From a virus (Duplodnaviria; Heunggongvirae; Uroviricota; Caudoviricetes): DNA of 19,945 nucleotides. The DNA lies in the IMG/VR virus record IMGVR_UViG_2627853844_000002, one strand, 5' to 3'. The translations under genes and the position numbers were made by a program. Positions 568 through 18,661 of the stretch are shown here, in pieces. Under the pieces are notes generated by a model. The model made no database searches and was not told where the DNA came from. It saw nothing but the letters and a program-made list of their open reading frames with translations. Within the stretch, counting starts at the first letter, position 1. Every line of letters begins with the position of its first letter.

Positions 568-786
568 CTAACGCGGGTATGTAATCATTCTGGCAATGCT
601 TAATGCCGCTGCTTTTTCCAGATTGGTGATATCCTGCTCCAGAGCGAACAGATTTTCAGCCTGCTTAGCCCTGGCTTCATTAGCCCATTTCAGATCCTGC
701 GCTGCATTAATTTTCTGGCGCATCCACTCATAAAGTTCATCATCGGTATAGTCTGGCGCGATGATGACGGGTTCTCGTTTCTGCAT
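568..786 (-). CDS. ydfC: Qin prophage protein YdfC (72 aa)
   Basis: ORF track translation MQKREPVIIAPDYTDDELYEWMRQKINAAQ... recognised as YdfC; position upstream of dicF in the dicB operon. Confidence 0.8.
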   Translation of the reverse strand: MQKREPVIIAPDYTDDELYEWMRQKINAAQDLKWANEARAKQAENLFALEQDITNLEKAAALSIARMITYPR

Positions 787-815
787 ACTGATTCCTCGCG
801 GTGCTGTTTCGCTTA

Positions 816-944
816 TCAGCCGTTAGATTTTGCCGAACTGGAAAGCGCCTGTTTAAACTCACTGAAGCTGAGAGCTTCTTCGCCTTCGGCAAGGCCTTCG
901 AAGTATTCTTCGTAAGCCTTTTCCATGATTGTGTCGAAATCCAT
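816..944 (-). CDS. ydfB: Small protein YdfB (42 aa)
   Basis: Manual translation of the minus strand from ATG at 944: MDFDTIMEKAYEEYFEGLAEGEEALSFSEFKQALSSSAKSNG, stop TGA at 816-818. Not in the ORF track because it is under 60 aa. Confidence 0.75.
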   Translation of the reverse strand: MDFDTIMEKAYEEYFEGLAEGEEALSFSEFKQALSSSAKSNG

Positions 945-945
945 A

Positions 946-1101
946 TCACTCACCTGAGTTTCTTTCCAGCCAGCGACGGGCACCATTTTCGGTTTTAAAC
1001 GTTTTGCTTTTGGTATACGTCATTGCGGTGAACGTGCCGTCCTGGTTTGGAAACACGCCGTACACCAGAGATTCGTTGTTGCCAAGATCGATAGTATCCA
1101 T
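946..1101 (-). CDS. ydfA: Small protein YdfA (51 aa)
   Basis: Internal Met of ORF 946..1179 gives MDTIDLGNNESLVYGVFPNQDGTFTAMTYTKSKTFKTENGARRWLERNSGE (51 aa), first gene of the dicB operon. Confidence 0.75.
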   Translation of the reverse strand: MDTIDLGNNESLVYGVFPNQDGTFTAMTYTKSKTFKTENGARRWLERNSGE

Positions 1102-1267
1102 GCTGACCTCATTTCCCCTTAACGCTGGGGTAGCGGAACTGTTTGCTGAGAACACCGTGCGGTGTGTTGATGCAAACAAGATTAGCCATGACTAACATAT
1201 CGGTCAAGTGATTTTGTATGCTATAGCTAACATAATTGATGTGGTAAAAGATAACTCATTGATGATG
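1102..1267 (-). promoter_or_regulatory. dicB-operon promoter region with candidate DicA operator dyads (TTAGCCATGACTAA at 1182-1195; TAGCTA at 1223-1228)
   Basis: Near-palindromes sharing the TTAG/CTAA half-site with those in the dicA-dicC intergenic region; lies between the dicA stop and the ydfA start. Confidence 0.4.
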
Positions 1268-1675
1268 TTATCTTTTATTTGTCCGCTGACGGGCTTTTAG
1301 TAATTCTTCAAAGAGTTTATTGAAGTTTTTTACTCGAGCTCGCATTTCGGCGAGCTGGGTATCCTGTTCTGATTCTGGCAGTGCATTAAACAGCTCAAGG
1401 AGCTCTAGTTCTTTGGGGGATAAGGCAACTGGCTTCTCAACAGGTGGTGTTGGTTGCTTGTCTTCATCGCCAAATAGAATCCATGTTGGTGAGCATTGCA
1501 ATACTTTACTGAGGGCAAAAAGGTTCTTCCCTGTAGGTTCACTATCACCCCGTTCCCATTGTGATACAGACACATGGGAGATTTTCAGGGCTTTAGCAAG
1601 AGACCTTTGGGTGTGTTTGAGGTTTTTCCGACGATACCTGATGCGTTCGCCGATAGTTAAATTTTTTGTTTCCAT
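1268..1675 (-). CDS. dicA: DicA, HTH (XRE-family) repressor of the division-inhibition operon (135 aa)
   Basis: ORF translation METKNLTIGERIRYRRKNLKHTQRSLAKALKISHVSVSQWERG... has a classic HTH; divergent from dicC. Confidence 0.9.
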   Translation of the reverse strand: METKNLTIGERIRYRRKNLKHTQRSLAKALKISHVSVSQWERGDSEPTGKNLFALSKVLQCSPTWILFGDEDKQPTPPVEKPVALSPKELELLELFNALPESEQDTQLAEMRARVKNFNKLFEELLKARQRTNKR

Positions 1676-1758
1676 AGTTAGCTAATGCTAAATCGTATTG
1701 ACTATGTTTTTGTTAACATCTATCTTGTTAGTTATGACTAACAATAAAGGTGTTTTAA
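1676..1758. promoter_or_regulatory. dicA-dicC divergent promoter/operator region with three dyad-symmetric elements
   Basis: TTAGC-TAAT-GCTAA (1678-1691), TGTTAACA (1714-1721) and TTGTTAGT-TATG-ACTAACAA (1726-1745), all within 83 bp between the divergent repressor and Cro-like gene; cI/cro-like architecture. Confidence 0.55.
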
Positions 1759-1989
1759 ATGCTTAAAACTGACGCTCTTTTGTATTTCGGTTCAAAAACA
1801 AAACTTGCACAAGCAGCAGGTATTCGTTTGGCTTCGCTTTATAGCTGGAAAGGGGATTTAGTTCCCGAAGGTCGCGCGATGCGTCTACAGGAGGCATCTG
1901 GCGGGGAGCTTCAGTATGATCCCAAAGTTTATGATGAATATCGTAAGACGAAGCGGGCGGGGCGGTTGAACAATGAAAATCACTCCTGA
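1759..1989 (+). CDS. dicC: DicC, Cro-like regulator (76 aa)
   Basis: ORF translation MLKTDALLYFGSKTKLAQAAGIRLASLYSWKGDLVPEGRAMRLQEASGGELQYD...; divergent from dicA. Confidence 0.85.
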   Translation: MLKTDALLYFGSKTKLAQAAGIRLASLYSWKGDLVPEGRAMRLQEASGGELQYDPKVYDEYRKTKRAGRLNNENHS

Positions 1990-2263
1990 ACAGGCTCGTG
2001 AGGCTCTGGATGCCTGGATATGTCGACCAGGAATGACACAGGAGCAGGCGACGATATTAATCACTGAAGCATTCTGGGCTTTGAAAGAGCGCCCGAACAT
2101 CGATGTTCAGCGTGTCACATATGAAGGTGGCGCGATTGATCAGCGAGCGCTTGGCGTTAATCGAGTGAAGATATTTGAACGCTGGAAGGCTATCGACACC
2201 AGGGATAAGCGTGAAAAGTTCACGGCGCTAGTGCCTGCAATTATGGAGGCTACCACTGGATGA
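1973..2263 (+). CDS. ydfX: Qin prophage protein YdfX (96 aa); overlaps the dicC 3' end by 17 nt
   Basis: ORF translation MKITPEQAREALDAWICRPGMTQEQ...; position immediately after dicC. Confidence 0.65.
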   Translation: MKITPEQAREALDAWICRPGMTQEQATILITEAFWALKERPNIDVQRVTYEGGAIDQRALGVNRVKIFERWKAIDTRDKREKFTALVPAIMEATTG

Positions 2264-2285
2264 TGAAAAGAGTGTCCATGAACGA

Positions 2286-2435
2286 GTGGATAATGCCCGT
2301 ATTGATTTACGCTCAAAATACTATGTTAAACCTAAAGCTGACCATCCCTGGCTTACGCGCCGAACGCAAAGTCATCAGCAAGTTAAGCCCCCGAAGTTAC
2401 CTAAAAAGAAGCCTGATCCCGATAAAAAAGATTGA
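2286..2435 (+). CDS. Small lysine/proline-rich ORF (49 aa, GTG start), possibly the ydfW/intK remnant; an alternative-frame ORF 2260..2487 also exists
   Basis: Manual translation VDNARIDLRSKYYVKPKADHPWLTRRTQSHQQVKPPKLPKKKPDPDKKD; the length matches my recollection of YdfW, but the frame assignment is uncertain. Confidence 0.3.
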   Translation: MDNARIDLRSKYYVKPKADHPWLTRRTQSHQQVKPPKLPKKKPDPDKKD

Positions 2436-2832
2436 AACCAAGATCGATTCGGTTGAGTGCATATCCATTCATAGGGTAGATTCTTAAGTCGCGTTTCTGG
2501 TGTTCATTTTCGGGTGGTTTGTTACTTGTTTTACCGGGGATATGCCAGAAACGCGCTGAGTCAGTCTGGGCGGTGCGCGTAATGAGGCGTTATGGTAAAT
2601 AGCCTATGCTAATGTCCGCTAAGAGCAAGAAGCGGAAGTTGGCAGTTTTGTGGACTGTCCCCACAAAAGTGACTACAGAAATAGTTGCAATTCATAATTG
2701 ATCATGGGTTGTCAGTTAAACTCGTGGCGATTTAAATAGACTAATTGGGAGTGCGTCCATTACTTATATCTTGTAATGTTAACTATCAGAAATGATACAA
2801 AGATAATATGTCTTTAAAGAAAAGGCTGATGG

Positions 2833-2859
2833 CGAAAAGTGGCCCGATGAGGGCCACAA
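2833..2859 (-). terminator. Rho-independent terminator downstream of flxA
   Basis: Inverted repeat GTGGCCC-gatga-GGGCCAC (2840-2859) followed on the minus strand by a U-rich run (CUUUUC), immediately 3' of the flxA stop. Confidence 0.55.
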
Positions 2860-2871
2860 TACGGCTGTCAC

Positions 2872-3204
2872 TTAGACGTAAATATCAATGGTGCCAGCGG
2901 TATTTGTATCGTCTTTTTTCTCTTCTTTTTTATCAGGCTGAACTGTCGCGTCTTCATTCTTTTTCTCTGCCTGCTGCCTTAACAACTGCTCCAGTTGAGC
3001 CCAGAGGCTTTCAATTTGCTTCTGTACCAATGCAGCCATTTCTTTTTTCTGCTGTGTCGTCATCCCCTCTTCCGATGAGATTTTCCCAAGCTTTTCAGTC
3101 AGCACCTGAATTTGTCTTGTGATTTTGGCTATTTCTGATGTTCCTTCCGGGGCGGAGTTGTTTGAAATAACGGTTGAGGTATTTCCCTGAATTGTGACAG
3201 ACAT
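2872..3204 (-). CDS. flxA: FlxA, FliA (sigma-28)-regulated protein (110 aa)
   Basis: ORF translation MSVTIQGNTSTVISNNSAPEGTSEIAKITRQIQVLTEKLGK...; sigma-28 promoter directly upstream. Confidence 0.85.
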   Translation of the reverse strand: MSVTIQGNTSTVISNNSAPEGTSEIAKITRQIQVLTEKLGKISSEEGMTTQQKKEMAALVQKQIESLWAQLEQLLRQQAEKKNEDATVQPDKKEEKKDDTNTAGTIDIYV

Positions 3205-3225
3205 AGATTTCTCCTTTTAAAAAAG

Positions 3226-3252
3226 CACTATCGGCATGCACAAAAAAATCTT
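3226..3252 (-). promoter_or_regulatory. Sigma-28 (FliA) class 3 promoter for flxA
   Basis: Minus strand reads TAAAGATT-N11-GCCGATAG, against the sigma-28 consensus TAAAGTTT-N11-GCCGATAA, about 25 nt upstream of the flxA ATG. Confidence 0.7.
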
Positions 3253-3406
3253 TAATCGTATTTCTTGTGTCATTAATTGTTTGATGTTCAGATTGTTTTC
3301 CTCGCGGGCTGGCGCGCCTCAGAAAGTAAAGCTTGTTGACAGGGGTAAACGTTCGGCAATAATTTTCTGCCGCATGCGGGTGTTGCATAAAACGTGTTAC
3401 GTTCCT

Positions 3407-3712
3407 TTATCGACAGGTCAGGTCACCGCTCACCCGCCGACGAGAAAGCAACACTGACATGCTAAAGCAAAAAATAGATGAATAAGTTGAGTTGTGCATA
3501 TGTAGCCTGACCGTCACAAAGTATATGGTGTCTGTACCAGTAAGATGATGGCCGGACTCTTTAAAAACGAGCTGACCTGCACAATACAGGATGGACTTAG
3601 CAATGGCTGCTCCTGGCACAAAGCGGACAGTGATCACCGTTCTTACGACTACTTTCTGACTTCCTTCGTGACTTGCCCTAAGCATGTTGTAGTGCGATAC
3701 TTGTAATGACAT
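3407..3712 (-). CDS. ydfV: Hypothetical ORF (ydfV-like, 101 aa); doubtful coding status, overlaps the relB promoter/operator
   Basis: ORF track only; length matches the annotated K-12 ydfV as I recall; no recognisable domain. Confidence 0.3.
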   Translation of the reverse strand: MSLQVSHYNMLRASHEGSQKVVVRTVITVRFVPGAAIAKSILYCAGQLVFKESGHHLTGTDTIYFVTVRLHMHNSTYSSIFCFSMSVLLSRRRVSGDLTCR

Positions 3713-3736: not shown

Positions 3737-3976
3737 ATGGGTAGCATTAACCTGCGTATTGACGATGAACTTAAAGCGCGTTCTTACGCCGCGCTTGAAA
3801 AAATGGGTGTAACTCCTTCTGAAGCGCTTCGTCTCATGCTCGAGTATATCGCTGACAATGAACGCTTGCCGTTCAAACAGACACTCCTGAGTGATGAAGA
3901 TGCTGAACTTGTGGAGATAGTGAAAGAACGGCTTCGTAATCCTAAGCCAGTACGTGTGACGCTGGATGAACTCTGA
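3737..3976 (+). CDS. relB: RelB antitoxin (79 aa)
   Basis: ORF translation MGSINLRIDDELKARSYAALEKMGVTPSEALRLMLEYIADNERLPFKQTLL...; ATGA overlap with relE. Confidence 0.95.
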   Translation: MGSINLRIDDELKARSYAALEKMGVTPSEALRLMLEYIADNERLPFKQTLLSDEDAELVEIVKERLRNPKPVRVTLDEL

Positions 3977-4263
3977 TGGCGTATTTTCTGGATTTTGACG
4001 AGCGGGCACTAAAGGAATGGCGAAAGCTGGGCTCGACGGTACGTGAACAGTTGAAAAAGAAGCTGGTTGAAGTACTTGAGTCACCCCGGATTGAAGCAAA
4101 CAAGCTCCGTGGTATGCCTGATTGTTACAAGATTAAGCTCCGGTCTTCAGGCTATCGCCTTGTATACCAGGTTATAGACGAGAAAGTTGTCGTTTTCGTG
4201 ATTTCTGTTGGGAAAAGAGAACGCTCGGAAGTATATAGCGAGGCGGTCAAACGCATTCTCTGA
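3976..4263 (+). CDS. relE: RelE mRNA-interferase toxin (95 aa)
   Basis: ORF translation MAYFLDFDERALKEWRKLGSTVREQLKKKLVEVLESPRIEANKLRGMPDCYKIKLRSSGYRLVYQV... Confidence 0.95.
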   Translation: MAYFLDFDERALKEWRKLGSTVREQLKKKLVEVLESPRIEANKLRGMPDCYKIKLRSSGYRLVYQVIDEKVVVFVISVGKRERSEVYSEAVKRIL

Positions 4264-4558: not shown

Positions 4559-4590
4559 AACCCGCTTCGGCGGGTTTTTGTTTTTATTTT
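4559..4590 (+). terminator. Rho-independent terminator of the relB-relE-hokD operon
   Basis: CCCGC-TTCG-GCGGG hairpin (4561-4574) followed by TTTTTGTTTTTATTTT. Confidence 0.8.
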
Positions 4591-4598
4591 CAACGCGT

Positions 4599-4628
4599 TT
4601 GAAGTTCTGGACGGTGCCGGAATAGAAT
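4599..4628 (+). promoter_or_regulatory. Candidate sigma-70 promoter upstream of rem (TTGAAG-N18-TAGAAT)
   Basis: Hexamers read directly from the sequence; spacing 18 nt; function inferred only. Confidence 0.3.
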
Positions 4629-12598: not shown

Positions 12599-12644
12599 CT
12601 GATGAATCCCCTAATGATTTTGGTAAAAATCATTAAGTTAAGGT

Positions 12645-12713
12645 GGATACACATCTTGTCATATGATCAAATGGTTTCGCGAAAAATCAATAATCAGACA
12701 ACAAGATGTGCGA
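12645..12713 (-). ncRNA. IS10 antisense RNA-OUT (from pOUT; represses transposase translation); coordinates approximate
   Basis: Placed from established IS10 organisation (RNA-OUT covering roughly IS10 nt 47-115, overlapping the transposase start at nt 108); not derived independently from the sequence. Confidence 0.5.
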
Positions 12714-13914
12714 ACTCGATATTTTACACGACTCTCTTTACCAATTCTGCCCCGAATTACACTTAAAACGACTCAACAGCTTAACGTTGGCTTGCCACGC
12801 ATTACTTGACTGTAAAACTCTCACTCTTACCGAACTTGGCCGTAACCTGCCAACCAAAGCGAGAACAAAACATAACATCAAACGAATCGACCGATTGTTA
12901 GGTAATCGTCACCTCCACAAAGAGCGACTCGCTGTATACCGTTGGCATGCTAGCTTTATCTGTTCGGGCAATACGATGCCCATTGTACTTGTTGACTGGT
13001 CTGATATTCGTGAGCAAAAACGACTTATGGTATTGCGAGCTTCAGTCGCACTACACGGTCGTTCTGTTACTCTTTATGAGAAAGCGTTCCCGCTTTCAGA
13101 GCAATGTTCAAAGAAAGCTCATGACCAATTTCTAGCCGACCTTGCGAGCATTCTACCGAGTAACACCACACCGCTCATTGTCAGTGATGCTGGCTTTAAA
13201 GTGCCATGGTATAAATCCGTTGAGAAGCTGGGTTGGTACTGGTTAAGTCGAGTAAGAGGAAAAGTACAATATGCAGACCTAGGAGCGGAAAACTGGAAAC
13301 CTATCAGCAACTTACATGATATGTCATCTAGTCACTCAAAGACTTTAGGCTATAAGAGGCTGACTAAAAGCAATCCAATCTCATGCCAAATTCTATTGTA
13401 TAAATCTCGCTCTAAAGGCCGAAAAAATCAGCGCTCGACACGGACTCATTGTCACCACCCGTCACCTAAAATCTACTCAGCGTCGGCAAAGGAGCCATGG
13501 GTTCTAGCAACTAACTTACCTGTTGAAATTCGAACACCCAAACAACTTGTTAATATCTATTCGAAGCGAATGCAGATTGAAGAAACCTTCCGAGACTTGA
13601 AAAGTCCTGCCTACGGACTAGGCCTACGCCATAGCCGAACGAGCAGCTCAGAGCGTTTTGATATCATGCTGCTAATCGCCCTGATGCTTCAACTAACATG
13701 TTGGCTTGCGGGCGTTCATGCTCAGAAACAAGGTTGGGACAAGCACTTCCAGGCTAACACAGTCAGAAATCGAAACGTACTCTCAACAGTTCGCTTAGGC
13801 ATGGAAGTTTTGCGGCATTCTGGCTACACAATAACAAGGGAAGACTTACTCGTGGCTGCAACCCTACTAGCTCAAAATTTATTCACACATGGTTACGCTT
13901 TGGGGAAATTATGA
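12706..13914 (+). CDS. IS10 transposase (402 aa)
   Basis: ORF translation MCELDILHDSLYQFCPELHLKRLNSLTLACHALLDCKTLTLTELGRNLPTKARTKHNIKRIDRLL... recognised as IS10 transposase; start at IS10 nt 108. Confidence 0.95.
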   Translation: MCELDILHDSLYQFCPELHLKRLNSLTLACHALLDCKTLTLTELGRNLPTKARTKHNIKRIDRLLGNRHLHKERLAVYRWHASFICSGNTMPIVLVDWSDIREQKRLMVLRASVALHGRSVTLYEKAFPLSEQCSKKAHDQFLADLASILPSNTTPLIVSDAGFKVPWYKSVEKLGWYWLSRVRGKVQYADLGAENWKPISNLHDMSSSHSKTLGYKRLTKSNPISCQILLYKSRSKGRKNQRSTRTHCHHPSPKIYSASAKEPWVLATNLPVEIRTPKQLVNIYSKRMQIEETFRDLKSPAYGLGLRHSRTSSSERFDIMLLIALMLQLTCWLAGVHAQKQGWDKHFQANTVRNRNVLSTVRLGMEVLRHSGYTITREDLLVAATLLAQNLFTHGYALGKL

Positions 13915-13927
13915 GGGGATCTCTCAG

Positions 13928-14329: not shown

Positions 14330-14579
14330 GATATGTAGATGATAATCATTATCACTTTACGGGTCCTTTCCGGTGATCCGACAGGTTACGGGGCGGCGAC
14401 CTCGCGGGTTTTCGCTATTTATGAAAATTTTCCGGTTTAAGGCATTTCCGTTCTTCTTCGTCGTAACTTAATGTTTTTATTTAAAATACCCCCTGAAAAG
14501 AAAGGAAACGACAGGTGCTGAAAACGAGCTTTTGGGCCTCTGTCGTTTCCTTTCTCTGTTTTTGGCCGTGGAATGAACA
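14330..14579 (+). other. Lambda-type cohesive-end site: cosQ / cosN (GGGCGGCGACCT at 14391-14402) / cosB
   Basis: CGCACGTTGTGATATGTAGATGATAATCATTATCACTTTACGGGTCCTTTCCGGTGATCCGACAGGTTACG followed by GGGCGGCGACCTCGCGGGTTTTCGCTATTTATGAAAATTTTCCGG... matches the lambda right-end/left-end junction as I recall it, with a few substitutions in cosB. Confidence 0.85.
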
Positions 14580-15149
14580 ATGGAAGTCAACAAAAAGCAG
14601 CTGGCTGACATTTTCGGTGCGAGTATCCGTACCATTCAGAACTGGCAGGAACAGGGAATGCCCGTTCTGCGAGGCGGTGGCAAGGGTAATGAGGTGCTTT
14701 ATGACTCTGCCGCCGTTATAAGATGGTATGCCGAAAGGGATGCTGAAATTGAGAACGAAAAGCTGCGCCGGGAAGTTGAAGAACTGCGGCAGGCCAGCGA
14801 GACAGATCTCCAGCCAGGGACTATTGAGTACGAACGCCATCGACTTACGCGTGCGCAGGCCGACGCACAGGAGCTGAAAAATGCCAGAGACTCCGCTGAA
14901 GTGGTGGAAACCGCATTCTGTACTTTCGTGCTGTCGCGGATCGCAGGTGAAATTGCCAGTATTCTCGACGGGATCCCCCTGTCGGTGCAGCGGCGTTTTC
15001 CGGAACTGGAAAACCGACATGTTGATTTCCTGAAACGGGATATCATCAAAGCCATGAACAAAGCAGCCGCGCTGGATGAACTGATACCGGGGTTGCTGAG
15101 TGAATATAACCGCGCTGACAGACAATACGCAGGGGGCAGCAGGTCTTGA
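14580..15149 (+). CDS. nohA: Terminase small subunit Nu1 homolog, C-terminally altered by a deletion fusion (189 aa)
   Basis: ORF translation [46 protein letters not shown]... matches lambda Nu1 as recalled up to ...LLSEY, then diverges into [13 protein letters not shown] where the sequence joins stf. Confidence 0.9.
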
Positions 15150-16062
15150 GTTATACGAGGTGTATAACAACGGATATCCAACAGCGTATGGAAATATCAT
15201 TCACCTGAAAGGGATGACAGCCGTTGGCGAAGGTGAGTTACTCATCGGCTGGAGTGGTACAAGCGGTGCTCATGCTCCGGCATTTATTCGTTCACGACGG
15301 GATACGACCGACGCAAACTGGTCGCCGTGGGCGCAGCTTTACACCTCGGCTCATCCTCCTGCAGAGTTTTATCCAGTCGGTGCACCAATCCCGTGGCCAT
15401 CAGATACCGTTCCGTCTGGTTATGCCCTGATGCAGGGGCAGACTTTTGACAAATCTGCATACCCGAAACTTGCAGTTGCTTATCCGTCAGGCGTGATCCC
15501 TGATATGCGTGGCTGGACGATTAAGGGCAAGCCCGCCAGTGGTCGGGCCGTATTATCTCAGGAACAGGACGGCATTAAATCGCACACCCACAGCGCCAGC
15601 GCATCCAGTACGGATTTGGGGACGGAAACCACATCGTCGTTTGATTACGGAACCAAATCCACGAATAACACCGGGGCGCATACCCATAGTATTAGCGGGA
15701 CCGCAAATAGTGCCGGTGCGCACCAACACAAGAGTTCCGGTGCATTTGGTGGCACGAACACGAGCATTTTCCCTAATGGTTATACCGCGATTTCAAATCT
15801 AAGCGCGGGGATTATGAGCACAACAAGCGGTAGTGGCCAGACTCGTAATGCAGGGAAGACATCATCAGATGGTGCTCATACCCACTCGCTGTCCGGCACT
15901 GCTGCAAGCGCAGGCGCGCATGCACATACTGTCGGTATTGGTGCTCATACGCACTCCGTTGCGATTGGTTCACATGGACACACCATCACCGTTAACGCTG
16001 CTGGTAACGCGGAAAACACCGTCAAAAACATCGCATTTAACTATATTGTGAGGCTTGCATAA
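15100..16062 (+). CDS. stfQ: Side-tail-fibre C-terminal fragment (320-aa ORF from GTG; 5'-truncated remnant, likely not independently expressed)
   Basis: ORF begins inside nohA with no SD; Gly/Ser/Thr/Ala-rich with repeated GAHTHS / AGAHxH motifs typical of phage tail-fibre distal domains; followed by the tail-fibre assembly gene. Confidence 0.7.
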
Positions 16063-16637
16063 TGGCATTCAGAATGAGTGAACAACCACGGACCATAAAA
16101 ATTTATAATCTGCTGGCCGGAACTAATGAATTTATTGGTGAAGGTGATGCATATATTCCGCCTCATACAGGTCTGCCAGCAAACAGTACCGATATTGCAC
16201 CGCCAGATATTCCGGCTGGCTTCGTGGCTGTTTTCAACAGTGATGAGTCATCGTGGCATCTCGTTGAAGATCATCGGGGTAAAACGGTTTATGACGTGGC
16301 TTCCGGCGACGCGTTATTTATTTCTGAACTCGGTCCGTTACCGGAAAATGTTACCTGGTTATCGCCGGAAGGGGAGTTTCAGAAGTGGAACGGCACAGCC
16401 TGGGTGAAGGATACGGAAGCAGAAAAACTGTTCCGGATCCGGGAGGCGGAAGAAACAAAAAACAACCTGATGCAGGTAGCCAGTGAGCATATTGCGCCGC
16501 TTCAGGATGCTGCAGATCTGGAAATTGCAACGGAGGAAGAAATCTCGTTGCTGGAAGCATGGAAAAAGTATCGGGTATTGCTGAACCGTGTTGATACGTC
16601 AACTGCACAGGATATTGAATGGCCAGCACTGCCGTAG
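16062..16637 (+). CDS. tfaQ: Tail-fibre assembly protein (191 aa)
   Basis: ORF translation [78 protein letters not shown]...; start overlaps the stf stop. Confidence 0.85.
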
Positions 16638-16734
16638 GGTAAAACATATAAATTCTATAATTAGATGTATCTTTCCATTTACGGCAAGGAAGGGGGCTTG
16701 GAAGACGTAAAGCATCTCACACCGAGATTATTTT

Positions 16735-17325
16735 TTATATGTCAGGTGTCTGAAGTTTTGCTTTGGCTCTTAAAATGGTTTGCCGCGAGGTTTTGAATTC
16801 CCGGGCAATGGCACTTATACTTACACCTGACTTAATTCGTTCGAATACCGCCTGTTTCTGTTCTTCATTTAACACAGGTGGTCGACCAAAACGTTTCCCT
16901 GCGCCGCGGGCTCTTACTATCCCGGAATGAGTGCGTTCAAGTAAAAGGTCTCGTTCAAATTCAGCGACTGCTGAAATTACTTGCATCATCATTTTTCCTG
17001 TTGGACTGGTCAGGTCAATGCCCCCCAATGCTAAGCAATGCACTCTGATACCTGTTTCGGTCAGTTGTTCCACTGTTTTCCTGATATCCATTGCATTACA
17101 ACCAAGGCGATCCAGTTTTGTCACAATCAATTGATCACCACATTTCAGGCGAGCAAGCAACCGGTTAAAACCAGGACGCTCACTGGTTGCTGCTGAGCCG
17201 CTAATGTGTTCTTCGATTATTTGCTGAGGTTTGATTTTAAAACCTGCACTTTCGATTTCCCGGCGTTGATTTTCGGTGGTCTGATCCAGCGTTGATATCC
17301 GACAGTAAGCAAAAATTTGAGACAT
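16735..17325 (-). CDS. pinQ: Pin/Gin/Hin-family serine DNA invertase (196 aa)
   Basis: ORF translation [29 protein letters not shown]... with the catalytic Ser in the YxRxSTxxQ motif and a C-terminal HTH. Confidence 0.9.
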
Positions 17326-17641
17326 AGTGAGACTCTATACGAAATTGGTGTTCATATCATAATGCATCTCAGAAAATAATTATGATTATTTTTGTGCATA
17401 TTTGTATGTACACGTTCGAAAATAAACGAATGCGTATGCAACCCCGTAATTTTGGTGAGACCCAAAATCGATTTTGTGAAAAATGGCTTTAACTCGGTTT
17501 GTTTTTCGAGTTCCGGGCGGACTCAAGGAAGAAGAATAGTGTTGCGTGTTATTTTAACCAGATTTCAAGTTGTTTGGTCGTGGAAAAGTGGAGCAAAATG
17601 TTGTTAAAGTGGAAAAATGATAAAAAAGTAAGTTTATTATA

Positions 17642-17875
17642 TTACATTTTACCATTTAAATTTTGGTTGTCTTTAAGAACTGATATCGCTGTTTGTAATA
17701 ATTCTTTGTTATCCAGCCATGATGTTTTCTTTATGTTTCCTTCAATGTAATCAAGCAATGTTCTGGTATTGATAGGTCTTCCCTGTTTTGCTACTTCCAC
17801 TACAGCATCCCCTAGGATAATTCTTACTTCAGGAAGCTGCGCAGGGAACCACTTTAGGGTGTCTTTTGATTTCAT
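17642..17875 (-). CDS. ydfK: YdfK (77 aa), small prophage protein
   Basis: Internal Met of ORF 17642..17908: MKSKDTLKWFPAQLPEVRIILGDAVVEVAKQGRPINTRTLLDYIEGNIKKTSWLDNKELLQTAISVLKDNQNLNGKM; AAGGAAT SD upstream. Confidence 0.7.
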   Translation of the reverse strand: MKSKDTLKWFPAQLPEVRIILGDAVVEVAKQGRPINTRTLLDYIEGNIKKTSWLDNKELLQTAISVLKDNQNLNGKM

Positions 17876-18661
17876 GAAGATATTCCTTAAAATATTATTG
17901 ATTTTCATTGCGATATTGTATGTCTGATTCAGGATATGTTGACTTATACATCGGTTTTGTCTGGGTTATTGGATATGCCAATCCCTAATTTTATTAGAGC
18001 ATGACTAAAAATGCTGAATATGATAAGGAGCGAAGTGATTATCAGTATGCTGTTCATATAGCCTCGAATTAGTAATGTGTTATATATGATATAGTTGACA
18101 ATTTTTATCCTGGGTGTTCTTAAAGTTCGTAGATAAACATTGTCGTTTCAGGTATACAGGAATGCTAACAGGTGGCGGCAAAAATCAGGCGGTTTATGGC
18201 GCAAGCTGAAGTGGCAACTGCAAACTATCTTATGCAGAGACTCTACACGGATTGGGTTTAAAAGTATACATAGATAACAGTTTTTATCTGAAAAAGAAAA
18301 ATATCAAGGTGATATAGCCTATATGCCTTTGATGCGGAGGAATGAATGTGATGGGAGTGATGTATCTGAATAGTTGAAAAACCGCAGACACACCTTATGC
18401 AAGAACGTGCTGCGATTGGCTGGTAAATTTTTCGATAGTGTGAGTATTGAATGATTTCCAGCCGTTCTTGATTTTACGCATAAATCCATGAAAAAACTAC
18501 TTATCTGTTGGGGAGTTTTTTTGGGGCATATATGGGACAGAAATAGGCCCCAGATAGACACTGAGATCGAACTTAGGATGCTTTTTAAAAAAATGCAACT
18601 ATCTGAAAAAACCTAGAAAACGCCAAGGAAACCACAGGATGGGAAAAAACACCTGTGAATT

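Follow-up and report, generated by a model that had tools for sequence, protein, structure and literature searches.

pinQ of the Qin prophage: probably the resolvase gene of a tnpA-less Tn3-family mini-element

What is an intact DNA invertase gene doing next to a single tail-fibre cassette, with no recognisable segment to invert? The question is raised by pinQ in a 19,945-nucleotide stretch of viral DNA (IMG/VR record IMGVR_UViG_2627853844_000002; Caudoviricetes), referred to here at its full length as the window. The region concerned belongs to Escherichia coli K-12, where it forms the right end of the cryptic prophage Qin, and it matches MG1655 at 100% identity over positions 14400-18100. 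An initial annotation, made from the sequence alone, took pinQ for a Pin-type serine invertase that might be orphaned, might act in trans on other prophages or might use crossover sites that could not be recognised by eye. We suggest, with a probability of roughly 80%, that pinQ is the tnpR-type resolvase gene of an 834-bp Tn3-family mini-element without tnpA, and not an invertase of the Gin/Hin/Pin clade that lost its segment. The gene and an effect of its product in trans were already known; the transposon anatomy, i.e. the terminal inverted repeats (IRs), the resolution site (res) and the target duplication, appears to be undescribed, and nothing relevant came up when the full text of the literature was searched for Tn3 and resolvase in combination with pinR or pinQ.

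The pinQ unit and its relatives

The unit and its parts are given here with window coordinates and strand.

16692-17525, minus strand: whole unit, IR-tnpR(pinQ)-res-IR, 834 bp, a predicted non-autonomous Tn3-family element without tnpA
16687-16691, no strand: left target-site duplication AGGAA, read directly, identical to 17526-17530
16692-16729, plus strand: IR-L, GGGGGCTTGGAAGACGTAAAGCATCTCACACCGAGAT, terminal inverted repeat of the Tn3 family, outer end 16692, abutting the pinQ stop codon
16735-17325, minus strand: pinQ, encoding an intact small serine recombinase of 196 aa, assigned to the TnpR (Tn3-family resolvase) lineage
17336-17354, minus strand: homologue of res subsite III, TGAACACCAATTTCGTATA, between the -10-like box and the ATG, matching the family consensus TGTACACCCATTTCGTACA at 16 of 19 positions
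17356-17361, minus strand: -10-like hexamer TATGAT, at the position of TATAAT in the relatives; res overlaps this presumed promoter of pinQ
17367-17398, minus strand: homologue of res subsite II, 32 bp in the arrangement 9-14-9, TGCACAAAA-N14-TTTCTGAGA, with degenerate half-sites
17413-17438, minus strand: homologue of res subsite I, 26 bp in the arrangement 9-8-9, CATACGCAT-N8-TTTCGAACG; the crossover site in relatives
17487-17525, minus strand: IR-R, TGAGTCCGCCCGGAACTCGAAAAACAAACCGAGTTAAAG, terminal inverted repeat of the Tn3 family, outer end 17525
17526-17530, no strand: right target-site duplication AGGAA, identical to the left copy

That pinQ is apparently intact, as the initial annotation stated, is borne out by its 196-aa open reading frame (ORF), which spans Pfam Resolvase (1-144 of 145) and HTH_7 (1-44 of 45) and is thus full length; likewise, the 97 bp reported between the genes correspond to 16638-16734, from the end of tfaQ at 16637 to the pinQ stop codon at 16735-16737. 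The premise that PinQ is a Pin/Gin-type invertase owed a gix-flanked segment did not hold up. PinQ is 38% identical to PinE of the e14 prophage, 37% to Gin and 37-39% to other phage invertases, and because PinE and Gin share 78% identity with each other, PinQ falls outside the invertase clade. The PinQ family comprises at least 7,994 proteins at E <= 1e-40, in which the recognition helix AIAREFKT(S/T)RQTI is invariant, and this invariance fits the conserved half-site of the family described below. A search of NCBIfam gave exclusively sub-threshold matches (Mpi, XisF) and no family assignment followed from them. Compared with plasmid tnpR genes, the ratio of nonsynonymous to synonymous substitution rates (dN/dS) is 0.15, which argues for purifying selection on the protein along the path to those genes; substitutions inside the phage lineage are too few to judge. 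Roughly half of complete E. coli genomes (2,806/5,426) carry pin with an intact frame. The copies in Shigella flexneri and E. coli ECGI0523 (L017 and L018) have many frameshifts and substitutions and could be either pseudogenes or products of low-quality assembly, while the pin region in both is still colinear with the window by blastn, at 93%.

PinQ homologues are found in 1798 plasmid records of PLSDB, mostly from Klebsiella, Escherichia and Enterobacter. At 67-84% identity, they include recombinase genes that diverge from a Tn3-family transposase gene (Pfam DDE_Tnp_Tn3), as in the following loci.

Klebsiella plasmid pS130-1 (L027): homologue 78.5% identical, 159 bp from and divergent to the gene of a 994-aa protein with DDE_Tnp_Tn3 and DUF4158
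Rahnella pRAHAQ02 (L029): 77% identical, tnpA-res-tnpR arrangement
Vibrio plasmid (L031): 69% identical, tnpA-res-tnpR arrangement, tnpA frameshifted
Oxalobacteraceae contig (L014): 67% identical, tnpA-res-tnpR arrangement
E. coli pUTAK-18-1 (L033/L036): about 84% identical, tnpA-res-tnpR arrangement

The closest plasmid relative of pinQ is on pS30-1 (L026), and its protein is 84% identical to PinQ. This gene is in turn 96% identical in DNA to tnpR of pUTAK-18-1, where positions 359-4148 of L036 hold a complete element of ~3.8 kb with the order IR-tnpR-res-tnpA-IR that is probably Tn5403-like. That copy has its tnpA broken up into three frames and is bordered by the pentamers TATAA and TATCA. 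Two further loci, L028 and L030, have a complete res adjoining the recombinase gene and tnpA was found in neither; we read them as putative plasmid multimer-resolution systems. In one article, 'Tn5403-pinR' is written for a plasmid context on the basis of annotation (PMC13253593), which suggests that PinR is already the name given to the Tn5403 resolvase by annotation pipelines. The mini-element of pinQ is probably related to Tn5403 as well, a likeness that we offer as a lead.

The boundaries of the unit emerge from comparison with pS30-1. Positions 16692-17525 of the window and 4786-5635 of L026 are colinear over their whole length, both IRs included, and similarity ceases at the outer end of either IR. 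IR-L is homologous to the canonical IR, GGGGTCCGCTTGGAAAACGGAAA(A/T)TATCCCACGCTAAGAC, of L027, L026 and L036 except for a 3-bp deletion, lines up with the canonical IR found behind tnpR in L026, L033 and L036, and is the window's best match on either strand to the IR of the L027 transposon (score 16, compared with shuffle maxima of 10.5-14). IR-R lies ~50 bp beyond res site I, inverted relative to IR-L, and has its homologue in the IR at the other end of the L026 unit; its terminal GGGG is mutated to TGAG, its inner part matches the L026 IR at 22 of 26 positions, and no other place in the window matches that IR as well (score 15, compared with shuffle maxima of 11-13.5). The pentamer AGGAA abuts both outer ends, for which we estimate a chance of ~1% when one base of slack is allowed at each end. 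No remnant of TnpA was found in the window.

The region between pinQ and IR-R was compared with the upstream regions of 12 family members, which are colinear over 115-130 bp when anchored on the ATG. At all 12 loci, at fixed distances from the ATG, the 26-bp site I comes first, followed after a spacer of 14 bp by the 32-bp site II, then TATAAT and, nearest the ATG, site III. From the family half-site consensus TGTCCGAAA, site I is TGTCCGAAA-N8-TTTCGGACA and site II is TGTCCGAAA-N14-TTTCGGACA. Three dyads that overlap the promoter are the hallmark of a Tn3-family res, and the 115 bp upstream of pinQ are colinear with the three-dyad res of the relatives. In Qin, site I agrees with the consensus at 4 of 9 positions in the left half and 7 of 9 in the right half. 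Scored with the half-site matrix of the family, the Qin sequence reaches 9.2 bits at site II and 7.6 bits in the region of site III, compared with 25-32 bits at sites I and II of the relatives. A generic scan for promoters and terminators was not decisive for the -10-like hexamer. The res of phage 2H10 is somewhat better preserved than that of Qin. Copies within E. coli were too similar for phylogenetic footprinting to inform, and distant relatives were needed. Thus, sites that escape the eye do exist at this locus, as the initial annotation allowed; they are a Tn3-family res, two IRs and a 5-bp duplication, and not inversion sites.

Evidence for crossover at site I comes from the relatives L026 and L032 and not from Qin. 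In pNB4833-MCR (L032), a ColV-type plasmid, homology to the L026 unit stops at ~4590-4600, between TGTCCGAAATCG and TA in the centre of site I, and beyond the break lie a degenerate res and no recombinase gene. This break is a natural res-mediated mosaic junction, as expected of a resolvase crossover at the centre of site I.

The unit is also part of viable phages. A protein 98-100% identical to PinQ is encoded in 11 phage records, including 2H10, mEp460_ev081, Tritos, Kati, HannyBb and Turner, and the identity is 100% in Kati, PhiR34_1 and PhiR68_2. In 2H10 and Kati, J, lom, stf and tfa are followed by a convergent pin, which is the layout of Qin; in Tritos, the pin module is the same and the preceding fibre module is different. 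All of the fetched loci (20/20) are colinear with the window. Because viable phages share it, the single-cassette layout is native and not a result of prophage decay. What remains of the suggestion that pinQ is an orphan is, therefore, that no invertible segment adjoins it; loss of a segment by decay does not account for this. Phage Kati (L002) additionally has, at 3932-4074 and ~2.8 kb upstream of pin, a 143-bp direct copy of the tfa 3' end at 84% identity, and the tfa 3'-end repeats that bracket the pin-ydfK module of this phage are probably a trace of modular exchange. K-12 MG1655 itself has two copies, pinR in Rac (1433084-1433674) and pinQ in Qin (1633622-1634212; loci L034/L035), each inside a conserved module of ~2.5 kb; the two are inverted relative to each other and ~200 kb apart on the chromosome.

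The sequences show the anatomy, the homology and the lack of inversion at the locus; beyond this, we propose the following history. The mini-element would have transposed into an ancestral lambdoid phage just downstream of tfa, leaving the AGGAA duplication, and would then have spread to Rac, Qin and the viable phages as part of the tfa 3' end-pin-ydfK-ynfT module. In the phage lineage, the IRs and res have decayed (3-bp deletion; GGGG to TGAG; half-sites of 7-9 compared with 25-32 bits) with the reading frame intact; the element would now be immobile, its res would be a poor substrate and any present function would be exerted in trans. An enzyme of the TnpR type acts on its own res upstream of the gene and recombines two directly repeated copies, which normally arise only in a cointegrate or dimer. 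Because a partner res arises only in this way, neither a partner site nor an invertible segment would be expected beside pinQ.

Several observations weigh against this proposal. Judged by sequence only, PinQ has its stronger match in Gin (106 bits), with gamma-delta resolvase slightly behind (84 bits), and the assignment as a resolvase therefore rests on context and res. Each IR score taken alone is only slightly above the shuffle maxima. A reconstructed empty site used as query gave no single-piece match in 5,426 E. coli genomes or 50,697 phage records, so that the insertion event is deduced only from the IRs and the duplication, and the L026 copy of the mini-element has no target duplication. 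Finally, a resolution assay for any member of the PinQ lineage was not found in the literature, and the published outcome that depends on PinQ is inversion and not resolution (PMC12529663).

Crossover sites, inversion and prophage setting

For inversion sites, a matrix was built from the half-sites of pix, gix and hix, slid over the window as 26-mers and compared with shuffled sequence. The best 26-mer of the window scored 11.5 bits, which is the level of shuffled sequence (mean maximum 11.3), while the true pixL and pixR of e14 scored 29-30 bits; the initial statement that gix/hix-type sites cannot be recognised here thus stands after a matrix search. Gix-like sites were also not found in the whole genomes of phages 2H10 and Tritos. 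The core AAACCNNGGTTT, with up to two mismatches, matched the window 10 times with 12.35 matches expected and is not enriched. An inverted-repeat search around stf, tfa and pin gave no long repeat bracketing the cassette and nothing above chance, and when the sequences flanking pin were searched for a partner copy in two complete phage genomes, only a self-palindrome came up. In the window, one palindrome lies close to res.

17461-17478, no strand: palindrome CACAAAATCGATTTTGGG, between IR-R and res site I

In phage 2H10 the palindrome reads AAAAATCGATTTTT, a symmetric change of C..G to A..T that keeps the dyad, and it is absent from the plasmid relatives.

Both junctions of pinQ were then queried against 5,426 complete E. 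coli genomes. The junction of the pinQ 5' end with ydfK is colinear in 2762 of 2808 records (3379 places), and an inverted class was not found. The tfa-pin junction, colinear in 2640 records, fell into two classes only, 'tfa plus pin' and 'tfa without pin', neither of them inverted. As a positive control, the stfE-pinE junction of e14 gave a large class broken at query positions 225-227, i.e. at the pix site pixR, and this inverted class includes a K-12 derivative at 100% identity. Because the control detects the e14 isomers, the method sees real inversion isomers, and there are none around pinQ. The window contained no paired inverted crossover sites around stf and tfa, and the ~3,400 genome copies showed no second orientation; sites and both orientations together would have overturned the initial annotation.

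The order of genes at this end of Qin is nohA, truncated stfQ, tfaQ, pinQ, ydfK, ynfT and a ydfJ remnant. The two tail-fibre genes are context and lie outside the element.

15100-16062, plus strand: stfQ', a side tail-fibre gene reduced to its C-terminal 320 codons and joined to nohA, behind which it lies
16062-16637, plus strand: tfaQ, tail-fibre assembly gene (Pfam Caudo_TAP, E=3.6e-43), sole copy in the window

A tblastn search of the whole window on both strands with TfaQ and StfQ found no second stf-tfa cassette, in agreement with the initial description of a single cassette with none in opposite orientation. That description has to be corrected in one respect, since stfQ is only a C-terminal tail-fibre remnant made by deletion. 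Its product matches Pfam Collar and Phage_fiber, RefSeq labels it 'incomplete, missing N-terminus', and the nohA/stfQ deletion junction is at ~15107/15108, where two classes of database match (1-709 and 708-3701) meet. The ORF of nohA, a homologue of lambda Nu1, extends from 14580 to 15149 across this junction, and the whole block of head and tail genes is absent. The 3' part of tfaQ contains a match to Rfam IS009 (RF02111) at 16405-16603 on the plus strand (220.9 bits; gathering score 117), the single match of the Rfam scan and without bearing on pin; the stretch includes a mosaic boundary at ~16526 where many prophages change modules. Farther upstream, between ydfO and ynfO, lies a complete IS10 of 1329 bp (12599-13927) with a 402-aa transposase ORF (12706-13914) and a 9-bp target duplication, GGCGTAGTC. 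The MG1655 reference has 57 bp between ydfO and ynfO and no IS10; the window, therefore, is from a K-12 derivative carrying IS10.

Possible function in trans and other explanations

The explanation that fares best beside a transposon origin concerns function and is compatible with that origin. It holds that the selected function of PinQ is direct inversion of the e14 P segment in trans at pixL and pixR, by which StfE2 is switched on and adsorption of phage T2 blocked. Action in trans on another prophage, which the initial annotation had listed among its possibilities, has been reported experimentally: according to Kirigo et al. (NAR 2025; PMC12529663), overproduced PinQ shifts the 1797-bp P segment from about 30% to 88% inverted, the inversion yields StfE2 and blocks T2 adsorption, the effect requires stfP, stfE and e14, T2 induces pinQ, and deletion of pinQ lowers survival after T2 challenge. 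The reading frame of pinQ has moreover stayed intact while its own cis sites decayed, pix has the same length as site I of the family (26 bp), its half-site TCTCCCAAA agrees with TGTCCGAAA at 7 of 9 positions, and the pix sites rank first and fourth among the dyads in a 9-kb e14 locus. However, pix scores only 5.6-6.3 bits with the family matrix, about as much as random dyads of the locus and far from the 25-32 bits of cognate sites, and its motif lies 1 bp nearer to the site centre than in res site I. The helix-turn-helix (HTH) domains of PinQ and PinE share little, and the gene occurs in viable phages irrespective of e14 in their hosts. In the same article, deletion of pinE fixes the orientation of P even with pinQ and pinR present, neither an in-vitro assay nor a catalytic-serine mutant is described in the parts consulted, and PinQ is assigned now to Qin and now to rac. 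These assignments, together with the locked P segment, bear on how firmly the mechanism in trans stands. The published effect would fit an orphan enzyme, and because of the score of ~6 bits, the dissimilar HTH domains and the locked segment, direct catalysis at pix is best treated as unproven. We consider it a serious possibility, at slightly less than even odds.

Alternatively, PinQ might still resolve at its own upstream res, be it phage genome dimers, tandem prophages or cointegrates of related transposons. The full res architecture is kept colinear and the promoter-proximal site III is well conserved, and the signs of purifying selection toward the plasmid tnpR genes and the putative multimer-resolution systems of L028 and L030 point in the same direction. 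Lambdoid phages package their DNA from concatemers, and so a need for monomerisation is not obvious. Given also the poor match of site I (4/9 and 7/9) and the low score of site II in Qin, we regard continued resolution in cis as improbable.

An orphaned Gin/Pin-type invertase, whose ancestral gix-flanked alternative cassette was deleted during prophage decay, would explain why pinQ lies at the distal end of a tail-fibre region, like gin, cin and pinE, and why the best phage-family match is PHROG 125 'DNA invertase' and the best PDB match Gin. It is contradicted by the identical layout of viable phages, by an identity to the invertase clade of 37-38%, by an orientation in which pinQ is convergent with tfa while pinE diverges from its segment, by the failure to find any gix-like site or remnant, and by the res, IRs and duplication that point to a transposon; we therefore give it very little credence. 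A loose scan for paired Fis sites (enhancer) in the 5' part of the gene did not separate pinQ from the pinE control. Equally hard to credit is a cryptic local invertible segment with unrecognised sites, for example one enclosing pinQ as for hin: there are several dyads upstream of pinQ, among them the palindrome at 17461-17478 with its symmetry-keeping change in 2H10, but the ~3,400 copies showed no orientation isomers at either junction in a test that detected those of e14, the 20 fetched loci are colinear, and the two complete phage genomes gave no second copy of the pin-flanking sequence.

Comparison with known systems and implications

A transposon origin of pinQ is best appreciated next to the res/TnpR modules of the Tn3 family, in particular the small cryptic tnpA-tnpR elements of the Tn5403 type on enterobacterial plasmids. 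Both encode a small serine recombinase with a C-terminal HTH, both have a three-dyad res overlapping the promoter of the gene, and both end in IRs of the GGGG...TAAG type, ~38 bp long, with a target duplication of 5 bp; PinQ is 77-84% identical to recombinases of this kind encoded divergently from tnpA. The PinQ unit differs in that tnpA is missing, both IRs are mutated, the res half-sites are degenerate and the carrier is a phage and not a plasmid. To gamma-delta resolvase, the identity is only 33%; in Tn3 and gamma-delta, site I is 28 bp, whereas it is 26 bp in the PinQ family. The unit also resembles TIMEs, the IR-bounded Tn3-family mini-elements mobilised in trans, in being bounded by IRs, in lacking tnpA and in its 5-bp duplication, and a homologous unit of 850 bp is found on pS30-1. 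TIMEs carry no gene, whereas the PinQ unit keeps tnpR and res, and any mobilisation of it in trans would be hypothetical.

With the Fis/enhancer-dependent invertases Hin, Gin, Cin and Pin (PinE), PinQ shares the superfamily, the domain architecture, the GRPP arm motif and a gene position at the end of the tail-fibre genes of a phage. Their recognition helices are different (SRQTILR in PinQ compared with VSTLYKR), and PinQ has neither 26-bp crossover sites nor an invertible segment and is convergent with tfa instead of divergent from a segment. Fin is a member of the Hin/Gin clade that acts on a site of the cognate type, while PinQ comes from another lineage, whose consensus site is a poor match to pix. 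PinQ is reported to promote inversion of the substrate of PinE, and, as the discussion notes for Fin of the Fels-2 prophage and the H segment of Salmonella, it would be a prophage-borne recombinase that acts on a segment elsewhere in the genome (PMC12529663).

Since the annotation of the K-12 genome, pinQ and pinR have been labelled 'Pin invertases', and they were recently presented as the first recombinase-activated anti-phage system. More tentatively, and as something we hold to be rather unlikely on present evidence, PinQ and PinR could be exapted transposon resolvases that are kept for action in trans on e14 pix or on another target in phage-host conflict; this would be a cross-family capture of an inversion switch by an enzyme of the resolvase lineage. 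If the two genes indeed encode Tn3-family resolvases within a fossil mini-transposon, the missing invertible segment is explained without any loss. The cognate site would then be predictable as TGTCCGAAA-N8-TTTCGGACA with accessory sites, and direct and indirect action on pix could be cleanly told apart by experiment. Likewise, where plasmid resolvases are automatically labelled 'pinR' and phage genes of the lineage 'DNA invertase', tnpR or resolvase would be the better reading, and the pinQ unit would be a clear example of a transposon module that became fixed in the moron region of a phage.

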